Source of the DNA: a virus
Taxonomy: Duplodnaviria > Heunggongvirae > Uroviricota > Caudoviricetes
Direction: 5' to 3' (one strand)
Virus record (IMG/VR): IMGVR_UViG_2622736468_000003
DNA length: 64,000 bases
A program made the translations under genes and the position numbers. The notes beneath the pieces were generated by a model. That model searched no databases. It was given only the letters and a program-made list of their open reading frames with translations, and was not told where the DNA came from. Below, one piece after another: positions 5,901 to 54,076 of this stretch (position 1 is its first letter; each line of letters starts with the position of its first letter).

Positions 5901-6227
5901 ATGACTAAAAATACTCGTTTTTCCCCCGAAGTCCGTCAACGGGCAGTCCGTATGGTTCTGGAAAGTCAGAGCGAATATGACTCACAATGGGCGACAATTT
6001 GTTCCATTGCTCCAAAGATTGGCTGTACGCCGGAGACTCTGCGTGTCTGGGTTCGCCAGCATGAGCGGGATACCGGGGGCGGTGATGGAGGGCTCACCAC
6101 CGCTGAACGTCAGCGTCTGAAAGAGCTGGAGCGTGAAAATCGTGAACTGCGCCGCAGTAACGATATCCTTCGCCAGGCTTCCGCTTATTTTGCGAAGGCG
6201 GAGTTCGACCGCCTCTGGAAAAAATGA
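5901..6227 (+). CDS. IS629 transposase OrfA
   Basis: 108 aa [19 protein letters not shown]..., HTH and leucine-zipper region typical of IS3-family OrfA. Confidence 0.9.
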
Positions 6228-7114
6228 TGCCACTGCTGGATAAGCTGCGTGAGCAGTACGGGGTCGGACCGCTATGCAGCGAACTGCATATTGCCCCGTC
6301 AACGTATTACCACTGTCAGCAACAGCGACATCATCCGGATAAACGCAGTGCCCGTGCGCAGCGCGATGACTGGCTGAAGAAAGAGATACAGCGCGTATAC
6401 GATGAAAATCACAAGGTATACGGTGTGCGTAAAGTCTGGCGTCAGTTGTTACGGGAAGGTATCAGAGTGGCCAGATGCACTGTGGCACGTCTCATGGCGG
6501 TTATGGGACTTGCCGGTGTTCTCCGGGGTAAAAAGGTCCGTACGACCATCAGCCGGAAAGCCGTTGCCGCAGGCGACCGCGTAAACCGTCAGTTCGTGGC
6601 AGAACGACCTGACCAGCTGTGGGTGGCTGATTTTACTTACGTCAGCACATGGCAGGGCTTCGTCTATGTGGCGTTCATCATTGATGTGTTTGCCGGATAC
6701 ATCGTGGGGTGGCGGGTCTCATCGTCCATGGAAACGACATTCGTGCTGGATGCACTGGAGCAGGCGTTATGGGCCCGTCGACCGTCCGGCACGGTCCATC
6801 ACAGTGATAAAGGTTCTCAGTATGTATCGCTGGCCTACACACAGCGGCTTAAGGAAGCCGGATTACTGGCATCAACAGGAAGTACAGGCGACTCGTATGA
6901 CAACGCGATGGCGGAGAGCATCAATGGTCTTTACAAAGCGGAGGTAATACACCGTAAGAGCTGGAAAAACCGGACAGAAGTGGAGCTGGCCACACTCACG
7001 TGGGTGGACTGGTATAACAATCGACGATTGCTGGAAAGGCTGGGCCATACTCCTCCGGCAGAAGCAGAAAAAGCTTATTATGCTTCCATCGGAAACGATG
7101 ATCTGGCAGCCTGA
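6224..7114 (+). CDS. IS629 transposase OrfB (integrase catalytic domain)
   Basis: 296 aa; overlaps orfA as in IS3-family frameshift fusion. Confidence 0.9.
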
Positions 7115-21053: not shown

Positions 21054-21298
21054 ATTCATTACGATATGGGAATTCCCATATCGGGTAAAAACGGTTTGCG
21101 GTAAAGCGAGAGTTAAGCAGAATTGCTGCGGGTGCTTGAGGCTGTCTGCCTCGGGCATGCCACCGTAAGGCAGACAGAGAAAAGCCCCAGTTAACATTAC
21201 GCGTCCTGCAAGACGCCTAACATTAATCTGAGGCCAATTTCATGCTAGACACATGTAGGTTAGCCTCTTACGCGCCGAAAGGCAAGGAGAAGCAGGCT

Positions 21299-21454
21299 AT
21301 GAAGCAGCAAAAGGCGATGTTAGTCGCCCTGATCGTCATCTGTATTACCGTCGTAGTGACGGCACTGGTAACGAGGAAAGACCTCTGCGAGGTACGAATC
21401 CGAACCGGTCAGACGGAGGTTGCTGTCTTCACAGCTTACAAACCTGAGGAGTAA
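21299..21454 (+). CDS. hok: Hok/Gef-family type I toxin
   Basis: MKQQKAMLVALIVICITVVVTALVTRKDLCEVRIRTGQTEVAVFTAYKPEE matches the Hok pattern; in-frame upstream leader from 21242; terminator follows. Confidence 0.7.
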   Translation: MKQQKAMLVALIVICITVVVTALVTRKDLCEVRIRTGQTEVAVFTAYKPEE

Positions 21455-21522
21455 GAGACCAGGCGAGGGAGAAATCCCTCGCCACCTCTGATGTGTCAGG
21501 CATCCTCAACGCACCCGCACTT

Positions 21523-21545
21523 AACCCGCTTCGGCGGGTTTTTTC
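21523..21545 (+). terminator. Rho-independent terminator after hok
   Basis: CCCGCTTCGGCGGG hairpin followed by a T-run. Confidence 0.5.
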
Positions 21546-21843: not shown

Positions 21844-21861
21844 TGATGGGTATTGTGCTCT

Positions 21862-22347
21862 ATGGCTGAGATTGTTGAAGGAGTGCACTACCTTTCGTTT
21901 GATGATCTTACCGAAATTAATCGCCTTTTAATTGAGCTTCAAACACCAGATGAACCTGTTAGTGTGCTGAGTGTTGATAATTTAAGTTCTTCTCAGTCTC
22001 GTCCCAGCATGGTTCGATGGTATGAACAGACTAATGACATGTTTGTACTGGCATCAGTATTGATTGAAAGTCTGATTCAGAATCATCCATTTGCTAATGC
22101 AAACAAACGAACAGCTATGATGGCTGGTTATGTCTTCTTGTTGTTGAATGGCTATGAGTTAACAGCACCAGGCGATGAAATCGTGGAAATGGCAGAGGGA
22201 CTGGCCTGCAAAACCTATACTCGAGAAGATCTCGAGAACTGGTTGTGTTATTGGTCTCGTGCGTATGACAGCCGGGAATTATGTAAAACAGGCGCAACTA
22301 TTGTTTTGTATGAAACTATCAAGCTTAAAATAGAACAGCAAAACTAA
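21862..22347 (+). CDS. Fic/Doc-family protein (Doc-like toxin)
   Basis: HPFANANKRTAMMAGYVFLLLNGY matches the Doc-type HxFx(D/N)xNKR motif. Confidence 0.7.
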   Translation: MAEIVEGVHYLSFDDLTEINRLLIELQTPDEPVSVLSVDNLSSSQSRPSMVRWYEQTNDMFVLASVLIESLIQNHPFANANKRTAMMAGYVFLLLNGYELTAPGDEIVEMAEGLACKTYTREDLENWLCYWSRAYDSRELCKTGATIVLYETIKLKIEQQN

Positions 22348-23078: not shown

Positions 23079-23203
23079 TTTTTTGTTCCGTTATTAATGT
23101 ATAACACATAGTATTACATTGCGTAGGGATCTGCAATGCCATCAGTTTGACAACGTCGCGTATCCGGGATTATATTCATCGCACGCCAGCAAAATCTGGC
23201 GTC

Positions 23204-23382
23204 GGGATTAGGAACCCCGGATAGAAACCGCGACAGAGACACGCCGCGAGCGTGTTTTTTATTGTCGTATGCACACGCACATCTGAATTATGGTGGGGCG
23301 TATAGGGGAGCTGAAAAGCTCGCCGGTTGGTTTCCCGGTAGTTCCTAACCCTGTACGTCTCGCCACCCGATGATTAGGAACC
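23204..23382. promoter_or_regulatory. Three copies of a GGATTAGGAACC-like motif upstream of the ORF6N gene
   Basis: Direct copies at 23204-23218 and 23372-23382, inverted copy at 23341-23350; hairpin plus T-run at 23238-23262. Confidence 0.3.
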
Positions 23383-25421: not shown

Positions 25422-25615
25422 TGAATGCTAAAATTCAAACGATACCTGAATTACTGATCTGCACCAGGGGAAATCAGACAGAAGTCGCCAGAATACTGAA
25501 CTGCAATCGTGCCACAGTCAGAAAATACATTGATGATAAAGATGCGAAAAAGCACGCCGTCGTCAATGGCGTCCTTATGGTTCATCGCGGATGGGGTAAA
25601 GATACTGATGCGTGA
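25418..25615 (+). CDS. ninH: NinH-like protein
   Basis: 65 aa; [25 protein letters not shown] and VLMVHRGW resemble recalled lambda NinH. Confidence 0.7.
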
Positions 25616-25988
25616 TATCCGGCAGGTTCTTGAGCGCTGGGGGGCATGGGCGGCAAATAACTATGAGGATGTTACATGGTCGCCCATTGCTGCCGGATTT
25701 AAGAGGCTGATCCCCGAAAAAGTAAAATCACGTCCACAGTGTTGTGACGATGACGCGATGATTATATGCGGGTGCATGGCTCGCCTTAACAGGAACAACA
25801 GCGATCTGCATGACTTGCTGGTGGATTACTACGTGTTGGGGGAGACGTTCATGGCGCTGGCCCGTAAGCATGGATGCTCTGATGGAACTATCGGTAAAAA
25901 ATTACAGAAAGCGGAGGGCGTGGTTGAAGGGATGTTAATGTTACTTGGTGTCAGACTGGAAATGGACCGATATGCGCAACGCCTCTGA
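25608..25988 (+). CDS. Q: Q late antiterminator (phage 21/933W type)
   Basis: 126 aa from ATG 25608; [17 protein letters not shown] zinc motif; sits between the nin genes and the lysis region. Confidence 0.75.
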
Positions 25989-26119: not shown

Positions 26120-26713
26120 ATGGACATTGAAGATTTTCTGGAGGCGGAAGACAATGATCTGTCTCTGTGGAATGATGATATTTTAAGCATTGACTGGTTC
26201 GTTATCCTCAAAGAGCTTTTGAAATACCAGAACAGGTTAAAGTTAAACTATTCAGAATTACTTCTGCTGGCTAATTTTGTTTCATTTCACCAGGACGTAG
26301 ATTCGCAAACATTACCATCAATATCTCTTTTTGCCACCAGAATGCGTGCATCTCGTGCCATTATAGAAGAAGGCTTTCAACGCCTGGAGGAGAAAGGGAT
26401 GTTGCAGAAGATAAGTTATGCTCAAATCGGTCATGATTATGATTTGCGGAACGTTTATGACATCAAGCCATTAATTCGTAAGTTAATTGAGGTGCTGAAA
26501 ACCGAGTATGATAAAAAGCACACTTGCCCCCTCTGCGGCAAAATAGCTGTCTCTGATGAGGAAATTGAGAAAAAATTCGGATTCAGAATTTGCGGGAATA
26601 AGAAAAGGCCGCAAAGCTGGTGCCGTTCATGCAGAAGCACGAAACAACGCAGACTGAATTCATCGCTAATTGGCAAAAAAAAGCCCCGAAAATCTCCGCC
26701 CGAGGTGGTGTGA
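26120..26713 (+). CDS. Hypothetical protein, AT-rich moron downstream of Q
   Basis: 197 aa; C-terminal CPLCGK...CRSCRS zinc-ribbon-like and basic tail. Confidence 0.5.
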   Translation: MDIEDFLEAEDNDLSLWNDDILSIDWFVILKELLKYQNRLKLNYSELLLLANFVSFHQDVDSQTLPSISLFATRMRASRAIIEEGFQRLEEKGMLQKISYAQIGHDYDLRNVYDIKPLIRKLIEVLKTEYDKKHTCPLCGKIAVSDEEIEKKFGFRICGNKKRPQSWCRSCRSTKQRRLNSSLIGKKKPRKSPPEVV

Positions 26714-27061: not shown

Positions 27062-27545
27062 TATCCGTTCAACGGGAATGTTACATACCTCACAATTAAG
27101 TCAGTTGAATGTTGTCTGCCCGGATGAGAATTTGTTAGAAAAAACTGCATGGTGAATCCCCCTGAGCGGAGGGGCGACTGGTGACGGTATAATCTCTGAT
27201 TATCAAAACGAGAATGACGCGGGTTTAGTGGCACCGGGCTGAACTCACCGGGAGGCACCCGGCACCATGCAATGGCACATAGCGCCACTCTCCAGCCCCT
27301 CTCCGGAGGGGCTTTCTTATGGACAAAAAAGCCCGCGCTGGGAGACGCGGGCGGCAAGGAATAAACAATGAAACGTGAAGTAATATTTCAGCTGGCGAAT
27401 AATACCCCATAGTAATCACTCTGCGCAACTGCGCGACCTTTTTCGAATTGCGGGCTGTAGTCTCCCTTCTGCCATTGTCCTGTAACTTCCGGACTTCAGC
27501 CCGCTCCTTATTTTACTCACAATATTATCCCGGCCGGGAGGATTC

Positions 27546-29109
27546 ATGGCATTTAAACACTATGATGTTGTCAGGGCGGCGTCGCCGTCAGACCTTGCGA
27601 AACGAATAACTCAAAAACTGAAGGAAGGGTGGCAGCCTTATGGTAGTGCGCTGATTTCGACAGCTGGTTATGGTGCGGAGTTCATCCAGCCAGTTGTGAG
27701 TGAGGGGAGCATCTCATCACCAGAGGAGCCAGGCAACCGTCCGACGACCTCAGCGCCTTCTGTTGCGCCAGAATATTACTATGTGATCGCGCTTGCTGGT
27801 CAGTCCAATGGTATGTCATACGGTGAGGGACTGCCATTACCGGATACATTCGACAGCCCTGATCCACGTATTAAACAGTTAGCGCGTCGCAGTACGGTGA
27901 CACCGGGCGGTGCAGCATGCAAATATAACGACATCATTCCGGCGGACCATTGTCTGCATGATGTGCAGGACATGAGCCGTCTTAACCATCCGAAAGCGGA
28001 CCTGTCAAAGGGGCAGTACGGAACCGTGGGGCAGGGGCTGCATATCGCCAAAAAACTGCTGCCGTTTATACCGGCGAATGCGGGCATTCTGCTGGTTCCG
28101 TGCTGTCGTGGTGGTTCAGCGTTCACCACCGGAGCTGATGGCACATACAGTGACGCGAGTGGCGCCTCGGAGAATTCAACCCGCTGGGGTGTGGACAAGC
28201 CGCTGTATAAGGACCTTATCGGTCGAACAAAAGCGGCACTGGAGAAGAACCCGAAAAATGTGCTGTTTGCCGTGGTGTGGATGCAGGGGGAATTTGATTT
28301 TGGCGGTACGCCGGCAAATCATGCCGCACAGTTTGGTGCGCTGGTTGATAAATTCCGTGCAGACCTGGCGGATATGGCAGGCCAGTGCGTCGGTGGCTCT
28401 GCTGGCGGTGTTCCCTGGATATGCGGGGACACGACGTATTTCTGGAAGCAGAAGAACGAATCCACGTACCAGACGGTGTACGGCAGCTATAAAAATAAAA
28501 CGGAAAAGAATATCCATTTCGTACCGTTCATGACCGATGAGAACGGGGTGAATGTGCCGACGAACAAACCGGAAGAAGACCCGGACATTCCGGGTATCGG
28601 TTATTACGGTTCGAAATGGCGTGACAGCTCAGCCACCTGGACGTCACAGGACAGGGCGAGCCATTTCAGTTCATGGGCTCGCCGTGGGATTATTTCCGAC
28701 CGTCTGGCAACGGCGATTCTGAGCTGCGCGGGTAAGTCTTCTGCGTTTGTTAATGGTACTGCCGGGGTGGTTGTTCCAGACAGACCGGTTACCACCTCAG
28801 AGTCTGTAATTTTTTACGATGCCAAAAAAGCTACAGACAATCAGCTGAAACCCTATGGCTGGGACGGTGTGTATGGCAGGCGCACACTGGTTGATGACAG
28901 CGGCAATAAAGCTCTGCGAATTGAGAAAAATAACAGCGCGAAATCCTGGTCAATGTACTGTGATATTGCTGCAGACAAGGCAAAACTTTTACTGGAAAAA
29001 GGCGGGGAAATTGCTGTCCGGTTTAAAATCCCCGAAAACGTCAATCTTGAGACAACCAGAAACAAGTATGCCTTTGGTTTGTACTGGCGAATAGCGGAAT
29101 GGCCGGGTG
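27546..29109 (+). pseudogene. nanS: Prophage sialate O-acetylesterase (NanS-p type), 5' part, split by IS629
   Basis: N-terminal MAFKHYDVVRAASPSDLAKRITQKLKEGWQPYG domain followed by a SASA-type esterase core; ORF ends in IS-derived codons. Confidence 0.75.
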
Positions 29110-29163
29110 TGAACCGCCCCGGGAATCCTGGAGACTAAACTTCCTGAGAAAGAGGTAAACAGG

Positions 29164-29490
29164 ATGACTAAAAATACTCGTTTTTCCCCCGAAGTCCGTC
29201 AACGGGCAGTCCGTATGGTTCTGGAAAGTCAGAGCGAATATGACTCACAATGGGCGACAATTTGTTCCATTGCTCCAAAGATTGGCTGTACGCCGGAGAC
29301 TCTGCGTGTCTGGGTTCGCCAGCATGAGCGGGATACCGGGGGCGGTGATGGAGGGCTCACCACCGCTGAACGTCAGCGTCTGAAAGAGCTGGAGCGTGAA
29401 AATCGTGAACTGCGCCGCAGTAACGATATCCTTCGCCAGGCTTCCGCTTATTTTGCGAAGGCGGAGTTCGACCGCCTCTGGAAAAAATGA
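29164..29490 (+). CDS. IS629 transposase OrfA
   Basis: Identical to the copy-1 OrfA. Confidence 0.9.
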
Positions 29491-30377
29491 TGCCACTGCT
29501 GGATAAGCTGCGTGAGCAGTACGGGGTCGGACCGCTATGCAGCGAACTGCATATTGCCCCGTCAACGTATTACCACTGTCAGCAACAGCGACATCATCCG
29601 GATAAACGCAGTGCCCGTGCGCAGCGCGATGACTGGCTGAAGAAAGAGATACAGCGCGTATACGATGAAAATCACAAGGTATACGGTGTGCGTAAAGTCT
29701 GGCGTCAGTTGTTACGGGAAGGTATCAGAGTGGCCAGATGCACTGTGGCACGTCTCATGGCGGTTATGGGACTTGCCGGTGTTCTCCGGGGTAAAAAGGT
29801 CCGTACGACCATCAGCCGGAAAGCCGTTGCCGCAGGCGACCGCGTAAACCGTCAGTTCGTGGCAGAACGACCTGACCAGCTGTGGGTGGCTGATTTTACT
29901 TACGTCAGCACATGGCAGGGCTTCGTCTATGTGGCGTTCATCATTGATGTGTTTGCCGGATACATCGTGGGGTGGCGGGTCTCATCGTCCATGGAAACGA
30001 CATTCGTGCTGGATGCACTGGAGCAGGCGTTATGGGCCCGTCGACCGTCCGGCACGGTCCATCACAGTGATAAAGGTTCTCAGTATGTATCGCTGGCCTA
30101 CACACAGCGGCTTAAGGAAGCCGGATTACTGGCATCAACAGGAAGTACAGGCGACTCGTATGACAACGCGATGGCGGAGAGCATCAATGGTCTTTACAAA
30201 GCGGAGGTAATACACCGTAAGAGCTGGAAAAACCGGACAGAAGTGGAGCTGGCCACACTCACGTGGGTGGACTGGTATAACAATCGACGATTGCTGGAAA
30301 GGCTGGGCCATACTCCTCCGGCAGAAGCAGAAAAAGCTTATTATGCTTCCATCGGAAACGATGATCTGGCAGCCTGA
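29487..30377 (+). CDS. IS629 transposase OrfB
   Basis: Identical to the copy-1 OrfB. Confidence 0.9.
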
Positions 30378-53154: not shown

Positions 53155-53177
53155 GTAATACCCGACAACATGTCATA

Positions 53178-53202
53178 ACCCGCTGTGATGGCGGGTTTTT
53201 TG
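53178..53202 (+). terminator. Rho-independent terminator after lom
   Basis: CCCGCTGTGATGGCGGG hairpin followed by TTTTTTG. Confidence 0.5.
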
Positions 53203-53386
53203 TTGCCCGTGCAGGGCAAAAATCGTAGATTATGCGCGGGTGCCTTTCGGCTGATGGCTGGAAGGTGAACCTGAAGGCCTGATGTGGAAAGGCCCCGAGT
53301 CAAACATTTTGTTTAACCCGAGGCCCTAACCATCATACCTTAAGCAAGTAGAAGGTTAGCGCCTCTCCACTCAGGAGGCAAGCGCT

Positions 53387-53527
53387 ATGTCGCAAAAATC
53401 GCTCATCACCGTCACAATTTGTATGACGGTAATCTTCACCATCTGGATGTTACACGGCTCGTTGTGTGAGTTCCGGCTGAATTTGTGGGGAGCGGAGTTT
53501 GCGGCGTTCTTACAGTGTAAGCAGTAG
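53387..53527 (+). CDS. Second Hok/Gef-like small toxin (46 aa, candidate)
   Basis: MSQKSLITVTICMTVIFTIWMLHGSLCEFRLNLWGAEFAAFLQCKQ: transmembrane helix then SLCE and E-AAF as in Hok; GGAGG SD; hairpin at 53536-53560. Confidence 0.5.
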   Translation: MSQKSLITVTICMTVIFTIWMLHGSLCEFRLNLWGAEFAAFLQCKQ

Positions 53528-53583
53528 GAAAACCGCGACGGGGACGAAAGTCCCCGTCAACTGGTTGCTGAGGTTCAGCCGAT

Positions 53584-53985
53584 ATGGCACCCGTTTCTGG
53601 TGAGAGAATGGACGACAAAATTCTCCGGTATATGCAGCGTGTTGTGAGAAATTCCCGCAACCCTGAATTTATGAATGAAGTTAAAGACGCCTGCCTTAAA
53701 AAGCAGGCGTTTTGCTTTGAGGCACCGGATGGTTTTCTGGTGCTGCGTTCTGTGCTCAGTGACGACGGTATCCCTTATGTTCTGGTGTTGCTGGGCGTGT
53801 GTACGGGGAGTAACAGCGTTGAGCGTTATCTGCCGGAGGTGAAGACATTAACCCGTCTGGCTGGCGGACGCTGGGCTGAATTCCATACGGCAAGACGGGG
53901 ATTTATCCGGCTGGGAAAACGTCTGGGCTTTGAGCGAATGCCGGATGATGAGGATGGCTTCATGGTGTTCAGGATAGCGGTCTGA
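53584..53985 (+). CDS. Hypothetical protein
   Basis: 133-aa ORF. Confidence 0.35.
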   Translation: MAPVSGERMDDKILRYMQRVVRNSRNPEFMNEVKDACLKKQAFCFEAPDGFLVLRSVLSDDGIPYVLVLLGVCTGSNSVERYLPEVKTLTRLAGGRWAEFHTARRGFIRLGKRLGFERMPDDEDGFMVFRIAV

Positions 53986-54076
53986 CTGCCACTGTATTCA
54001 TTATCGTGTGTAAACCAATTGCAATTCACATTCTGACCCTGCCCCGGCAGGGTTTTTTGTTATCCAGGGGGCCATA

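Follow-up and report, generated by a model that had tools for sequence, protein, structure and literature searches.

Does the short open reading frame behind the lom gene of a lambdoid prophage that also carries hokW-sokW belong to a second hok locus, and, if so, how is that locus built and controlled? The window that we analyzed (the whole stretch of DNA, 64,000 nucleotides) is almost entirely a 933W/Sp5-like (Sepvirinae) prophage, and over the region, identity is 99.6% to many Stx2a phages and 92.5% to VT2-Sakai. The original prediction described a 46-codon Hok-like ORF, and such an ORF is indeed found at 53387-53527 on the + strand; it is initiated by ATG, and its product, from ORF scan and translation, is MSQKSLITVTICMTVIFTIWMLHGSLCEFRLNLWGAEFAAFLQCKQ. 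The parts ascribed to it are also present: the motifs SLCEFR and AEFAAF, a hydrophobic stretch with a hydropathy peak of 2.32 at residues 6-22 (Kyte-Doolittle, 17-residue window) that fits a single N-terminal transmembrane helix, a GGAGG ribosome-binding site at 53374-53378 with the ATG 8 nt downstream, and a stable hairpin just 3' of the ORF, with a 9-bp stem (53537-53558) and a GAAA loop. In order along the window, the features referred to below are:

53177-53202, + strand: lom intrinsic terminator and left cassette boundary (terminator scan; interfamily homology begins just 3' of it)
53203-53231, + strand: predicted hok promoter, TTGCCC (53203-53208), 17-nt spacer, TAGATT (53226-53231), read from the sequence
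53238-53254, + strand: predicted mRNA 5' end and tac element GGGUGCCUUUCGGCUGA; position 1 of the RF01794 match, predicted to pair with 53575-53592
53238-53398, + strand: hok mRNA leader, by homology to Rfam RF01794 'sok' (41.9 bits, E 4.6e-8)
53282-53329, + strand: 15-codon upstream ORF MWKGPESNILFNPRP, in the hok frame, ending with TAA
53284-53346, - strand: predicted Sok-like RNA, with a 5' tail (~14-19 nt) that is single-stranded and precedes an 18-bp hairpin, then CCUUUCC; both ends are predicted
53353-53381, - strand: predicted sok promoter, -35 TTGCCT (53381-53376), 17-nt spacer, -10 TAACCT (53358-53353), matching hokW-sokW
53364-53378, + strand: predicted anti-SD (53364-53368) paired with the SD GGAGG (53374-53378), inside a UAGCGC/GCGCUA hairpin
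53387-53527, + strand: hok-family toxin ORF, 46 aa (cluster 72 / phrog_251; WP_000078907.1)
53490-53507, + strand: segment within codons 35-41, base-paired in the MFE fold to the AUG and the codons after it (53387-53404)
53537-53558, + strand: 3' stem-loop, 9 bp with a GNRA (GAAA) loop (terminator scan, fold, covariation)
53575-53592, + strand: fbi element (UUCAGCCGAUAUGGCACCC region) and right cassette boundary; predicted to pair with tac, GGCACCC invariant
53608-53985, + strand: downstream gene phrog_610, function unassigned; RefSeq annotates its start at ATG 53584, inside fbi

The profile searches leave little doubt about the family. With 33.2 bits (E 4e-8) the peptide clears the gathering score of Pfam HOK_GEF (PF01848), which is 22, and it covers positions 6-42 of the 42-position profile, so the proposed comparison with the Hok/Gef profile came out positive, and PHROGs gives a full-length match to phrog_251, 'MokW-like host killing' (E 2.8e-24). 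The best NCBIfam match is the HokA equivalog NF007290, at 38.4 bits against a curated cutoff of 89. In BLASTP the peptide is 45% identical to K-12 HokA (E 4e-12) and 33% identical to the HokW of the same window. By these scores the 46-aa peptide is a cluster separate from HokA and not a HokA orthologue. The conserved Hok positions that we used were M1, a C/T pair in the helix, L-C-E and an acidic tail residue, and the peptide has the expected C12, T14, L26-C27-E28 and E37. Its C-terminal Cys, LCE and AAF-type motif line up with HokA and HokW, and C27, E28, A39 and F41 are invariant in that alignment (alignment A2). Judged by profiles and conserved residues together, the 46-codon ORF is a genuine Hok/Gef family gene.

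The ORF is conserved in 198 phage records and in 1551 of 5426 complete E. coli genomes, with up to 8 matching places per genome. A protein search of 5.8 billion sequences found matches in 56 clusters, which come from E. coli, Shigella and Salmonella, and every cluster that bears a source name is called 'Hok/Gef family protein'; intact ORFs are found across E. coli, Shigella, Salmonella and E. albertii. Comparing diverged copies of the ORF gives dN/dS of 0.13-0.40, from substitution counts that are small because the ORF is so short. In the allele of phage TL-2011c the core of the ORF is rewritten, yet the hydrophobic helix, CEFR and FAAFLQCKQ are kept. Because of these low ratios and of the motifs kept in TL-2011c, the peptide is, on comparative grounds, under purifying selection. 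The TL-2011c allele (locus L004, 1658-1798) is a mosaic relative to 53387-53527 of the window, with 54% amino acid identity and dS >1: the leader is near-identical, as are the two ends of the ORF (~15 nt at its start and ~45 nt at its end), and the core differs. This pattern fits recombination plus an RNA-structure constraint on the ends of the ORF. A search of genome contigs gave 10 loci, several of them in evidently contaminated assemblies. Specifically, enterobacterial hok cassettes occur in assemblies labelled Planococcaceae, Vagococcus and Moraxella osloensis (L008, L010 and L014), most likely as contaminating contigs.

The ORF had been described as unannotated. This holds for older records such as VT2-Sakai NC_000902, the only kind in which it was left out, but not for current RefSeq or PHROGs: RefSeq/PGAP lists the same ORF as WP_000078907.1, 'Hok/Gef family protein', between an Ail/Lom gene and a hypothetical gene, and phage records name it 'MokW-like host killing', 'small toxic polypeptide' or 'host toxic membrane protein'. 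The peptide has also been expressed. Entry 72_1589 in Table S2 of Escalera-Maurer et al. (bioRxiv 10.1101/2025.08.07.668861, 2025/26) is the identical peptide with the same GGAGG SD, carried on plasmid LRP157 for arabinose induction and assigned to a 'high-abundance cluster'. In that study 42 of 45 expressed Hok homologues were toxic, and because 72_1589 is absent from the three non-toxic entries, the tables of the preprint in effect report the 46-aa peptide as toxic when expressed. The preprint explicitly left Mok, Sok and the mRNA elements out of its analysis. Our literature search turned up neither a paper on how the post-lom hok copy is natively regulated or what it does, nor any transcript, transcription start or ribosome-profiling data for the locus; the peptide goes unmentioned in the Sakai ribosome-profiling paper and in its 15 supplementary files. 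The predicted gene is thus correct but not new, being already annotated and its peptide already reported toxic. What the present analysis adds is the RNA-level anatomy of the copy and the absence of mok.

The limits of the locus can be read from its homology to unrelated phages. Conserved sequence begins just after the lom terminator and ends at GGCACCC (53586-53592) in Stx-type phages, P2-like P88-type phages and a few plasmid records, and because the homology spans this interval we set the cassette at ~390 bp, 53203-53594. In all three kinds of record its boundaries coincide with the predicted promoter and with fbi. The hexamers of the hok promoter are conserved between Stx-type and P88-type phages, with a diverged spacer. 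Both predicted promoters are weak (8/12 matches for hok, 3/6 for the -10 of sok), and a promoter scan missed both because they score only 7-8/12 matches. Transcription of hok would start near G53238, where the near-invariant tac element (24 loci) begins. The RF01794 match covers the full model (1-157), and its 41.9 bits lie below the gathering score of 59 yet are significant; because it matches the hok sense strand, this model effectively describes the hok leader.

The putative mRNA is predicted to fold tightly. For 53238-53596 we obtain -158 kcal/mol (z -7.6), with 53238-53254 paired to 53575-53592 in what would be the tac/fbi closure. The corresponding helix is 95.8-96.4% paired in 24 loci, which is support from conservation and not from covariation because both elements are invariant. 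The RNAalifold consensus of the same 24 loci is 97.6% paired compared with 37-43% in slid controls, a contrast that is inflated because the structure was derived from those same sequences. The probability of the SD being unpaired is 0.01-0.06 in full-length and 3'-truncated folds, and the UAGCGC/GCGCUA hairpin that holds it forms in 14/14 distinct variants of the translation initiation region. The helix between the AUG and codons 35-41 has 16 pairs and is 98.4% paired across 24 loci; its downstream segment, 53490-53507, is identical even in TL-2011c, despite the diverged core of that ORF. In the 3' stem-loop two closing pairs covary (GC in 13 and AU in 11 loci for one; AU, CG and GC in 13, 8 and 2 loci for the other) and the GNRA loop is kept. 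This hairpin reads as the 3' stem-loop of the hok mRNA; with no T-run on the + strand, it is not an intrinsic terminator of hok. By analogy with R1 it is likely to protect the 3' end of the processed mRNA. When fbi is removed in silico, the 5' end refolds into a local hairpin and the probability that the antisense target is unpaired rises from 0.26 to 0.44, while the SD remains closed.

The opposite strand carries the candidate antitoxin. The predicted Sok-like RNA folds with -30.3 kcal/mol (z -5.96), and in 26/26 distinct variants the antisense strand is more stable than the sense strand (mean -25.0 versus -14.1 kcal/mol). Over the 26 variants the antisense hairpin has 2-6 G.U pairs, which turn into C.A mismatches on the opposite strand; the sense fold has none. 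At the level of sequence, this asymmetry between the strands is what speaks most strongly for the predicted functional Sok-like RNA. The hexamers and spacing of its putative promoter are identical to those of the hokW-sokW locus (21257-21285), and AGGTTAG, which spans the -10, is invariant in our alignment. The substitutions by which Takada et al. silenced sokW would fall in the TAACCT of the hokW-sokW locus, to judge from primer YO-421 compared with the wild type. The U-tract after the hairpin, CCUUUCC, is short. The region of the Sok 5' tail is the most variable part of the cassette: the predicted tail/target segment, 53303-53346 (alignment A3, columns ~70-125), is hypervariable and contains indels, while the rest is conserved. 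Together with the presence of multiple copies, the hypervariable tail may reflect selection for copies that do not cross-react.

The most unusual aspect of the cassette is the lack of mok. In the window copy no ORF starting with ATG, GTG or TTG reaches the hok SD in any frame, and the three frames upstream of the SD are closed by stops at 53341-53343, 53349-53351 and 53357-53359. A mok ORF is missing in 34 of the 53 other unique variants as well; since the R1-mok-like frame is open in only the other 19, mok is not conserved in the cluster. Among all 54 unique variants, indels in the Sok tail/target segment decide whether this frame is open (19/54). Two ways in which a mok could have escaped us were considered and rejected. 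A non-canonical start after the conserved GAGG does not work, as the window reads AUC AUA CCU UAA at this point and no start is conserved among the variants; nor is Mok present as an N-terminal extension in homologues, because the longer cluster representatives are C-terminal read-throughs. In plasmid R1, mutations of the mok start codon or nonsense mutations in mok abolish translation of Hok (Le Rhun et al. 2022, PMC9841398). Either the SD is opened in another way in this cluster, or many of the copies are translationally attenuated, and we favour the former because the peptide is under purifying selection.

The cassette lies in the late region of the prophage, as predicted, at the distal end of a late block in which Q (25509-25988), the holin (31385), the lysozyme (31659), the tail genes and lom are all on the + strand. 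There is no terminator directly after fbi; the first one on the + strand is at 54035-54054, after the phrog_610 gene, whereas P88 has a terminator within about 25 nt after fbi. Because the cassette is without a terminator of its own, Q-modified late transcription should cross it on induction. The downstream gene had been called a virion gene, a label that we would drop, as phrog_610 is a family of unassigned function. Its true start is probably ATG 53608, just outside the cassette, and not 53584, because the PHROG profile aligns only from residue 9.

The locus must be distinguished from hokW-sokW, published in Sakai prophage 5 (Sp5), and an identity of the two was considered and rejected: the hokW primers and the 51-aa HokW map from 21299 onwards, with an exact match of primer YO-357 at 21299-21319. 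A second type I locus in the same prophage, as had been proposed, is therefore what we find, in the sense of a hok-type locus distinct from the one at 21130-21530. The latter interval is the published hokW-sokW, in which the frame of HokW (51 aa) begins at 21299. Upstream in the same frame lies an ATG at 21242, from which a MokW-type product of 70 aa with a 19-codon extension can be read, and the locus has a terminator of its own near 21520-21545. A Fic/DOC-family ORF (21853-22347) lies immediately 3' of hokW-sokW and may be a toxin-type moron of the nin region. HokW, an inner-membrane protein made on RecA-dependent induction, hastens the arrest of growth, doubles the release of phage and assists lysis by Sp5 (Takada et al. 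2021, PMC8621323).

The two loci share the prophage type, the family, the hexamers and spacing of the sok promoter (a predicted one in the post-lom copy) and the tac/fbi architecture. They differ in that the peptides are only 33% identical, hokW lies in the early nin region and not after lom, hokW has an in-frame Mok and its own terminator whereas the post-lom copy has neither mok nor an adjacent terminator, and the Rfam sok score is 116.9 bits for hokW-sokW compared with 41.9. Cross-pairing of the predicted Sok with sokW/hokW would be weak, with -14 to -18 kcal/mol for the tails compared with -32 to -37 for the cognate pairs. The closest characterized paralogue is hokA/sokA, with 45% identity and the common motifs W-M-x-x-x-SLCE and AAFL-x-CK; the post-lom peptide is 4 residues shorter than HokA, and hokA is chromosomal, with mokA annotated, and is disrupted by IS150 in K-12. 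With R1 hok/mok/sok the cassette shares the predicted tac/fbi closure, the SD/anti-SD hairpin, the 3' stem-loop and, as a candidate, a cis-antisense RNA composed of a 5' tail and a hairpin. However, R1 is a plasmid setting and not a phage late operon, and R1 opens the hok SD by translation of the 70-codon mok, whereas the GAGG at the position of the mok SD here is followed by no start codon. At the protein level there is no difference from cluster 72 / 72_1589, WP_000078907.1 and phrog_251, which occupy the same post-lom site in E. coli prophages and Stx phages.

Taken together, we think it probable that 53203-53594 is a self-contained type I toxin-antitoxin cassette of the hok/sok family within the late prophage block. 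Family membership, conservation, the predicted folds and the reported toxicity are established from sequence or from the literature; the ends of the transcripts, the expression of Sok, the trigger and the role are what we infer in the following. By analogy with other Hok toxins, the HokA-like peptide with its short Cys-containing tail would kill through damage to the inner membrane. An mRNA starting at ~53238 would be closed by tac/fbi, with the SD in its local hairpin and the AUG paired with codons 35-41, and processing would leave the GNRA-capped hairpin (53537-53558) at the 3' end. Removal of fbi would let the 5' end form a hairpin with itself and leave the antisense target more open, and a Sok-like RNA of ~60 nt would then pair with the leader at ~53284-53346, leading to decay or to a block of activation, as for sok and sokW. 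Neutralization by the antitoxin with RNase III-dependent decay has been shown for hokW-sokW (PMC8621323) and R1 (PMC9841398). In the lysogen the toxin would thus be kept off by Sok. On induction, Q-dependent late transcription would pass the lom terminator, flood the locus with sense RNA and disturb sok transcription, so that Hok would be made late and could aid lysis, as shown for hokW. A role similar to or redundant with that of HokW is the most economical guess by this analogy; stabilization of the prophage and exclusion of other phages are possible alternative roles.

Other explanations start from real features of the locus. Short ORFs are frequent (58 of at least 20 aa in the 3.5 kb that we scanned), and a resemblance to Hok could in principle be accidental, but the chance of this is practically nil and we regard the idea as already refuted by the Pfam, PHROG and NCBIfam matches, the 56 homologous protein clusters whose source names are all Hok/Gef, and the purifying selection on the peptide. 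Several points fit a working cassette poorly. There is no mok in any frame, the SD and the AUG are sequestered in every predicted conformer, the Rfam match is sub-threshold, tac/fbi lacks covariation, the promoters are weak, the U-tract is short, and, unlike in P88, no terminator stands right after fbi. The first two of these points are also arguments for a disarmed relic, a copy that has lost mok, no longer has Hok translated from its own mRNA and is passive cargo. The loss of Hok translation in R1 mok mutants (PMC9841398) speaks in the same direction, as do reports in the literature that the native chromosomal hokA, hokB and hokC give no post-segregational killing. Nevertheless a relic seems improbable to us, given that the low dN/dS and the intact ORFs extend across E. 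coli, Shigella, Salmonella and E. albertii, that the promoter, tac/fbi, the SD hairpin, the 3' hairpin and the sok promoter are all conserved in unrelated phage families, and that the peptide is still toxic according to the preprint.

The co-orientation of the ORF with the late block, its moron position after lom without a terminator of its own, and the assistance that HokW gives to Sp5 lysis (PMC8621323) would also suit a simpler arrangement, in which the late, Q-dependent transcript is translated into a holin-like lysis accessory and the antisense features are remnants. This we hold to be very improbable: all 26 variants keep the hexamers of the sok promoter and the strand asymmetry of the hairpin, the translation initiation region is tightly sequestered, unlike that of an ordinary late gene, and the same cassette carries its own terminator in P88-type phages. 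In a more specific form of the cassette model, which we put forward as doubtful but worth stating, the locus works independently of mok and is unlocked by Q-dependent read-through, through an excess of sense RNA and collision at the sok promoter, as a later lysis step beside hokW. The toxin would then be released by late transcription, in contrast to the plasmid-style decay of the antitoxin.

If true, such a mok-independent step could explain why deletion of hokW-sokW merely halves the release of Sp5. The sequence of Sp5 (VT2-Sakai), in which the copy lies at NC_000902 44544-44914, encodes the identical 46-aa peptide, so the published ΔhokW-sokW experiments presumably left a second hok in place, which may have hidden some of the phenotype. 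More generally, pathogenic E. coli have Stx-type prophages with two hok cassettes that look unrelated to each other, of which only hokW-sokW has been studied natively. A copy that lacks mok while its peptide is under purifying selection is a convenient natural case for mok-free translation of hok. The questions that it raises are incremental ones within a well-known system, and it is not a new kind of element.

Some further observations concern the prophage itself. No stx genes lie between Q (25509-25988) and a DUF1737/SASA esterase gene (27546-29138), and a search of the window with the start sequence of stx2A gave no match. The prophage is stx-negative but Stx-phage-like. The interval between Q and the esterase gene holds an ORF with a DnaD_N domain (26120-26713) and STnc100 (27119-27324). 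ALIL frameshift pseudoknots with identical scores at 6182-6298 and 29445-29561 point to two copies of an IS3-family element, and the IS ORFs at 29164-30377 lie directly 3' of the esterase gene, which they may truncate. Finally, isrK (23183-23260) adjoins a C4 antisense RNA (23286-23370), and this pair suggests a P1/P7-type C4 immunity RNA module in a lambdoid prophage.
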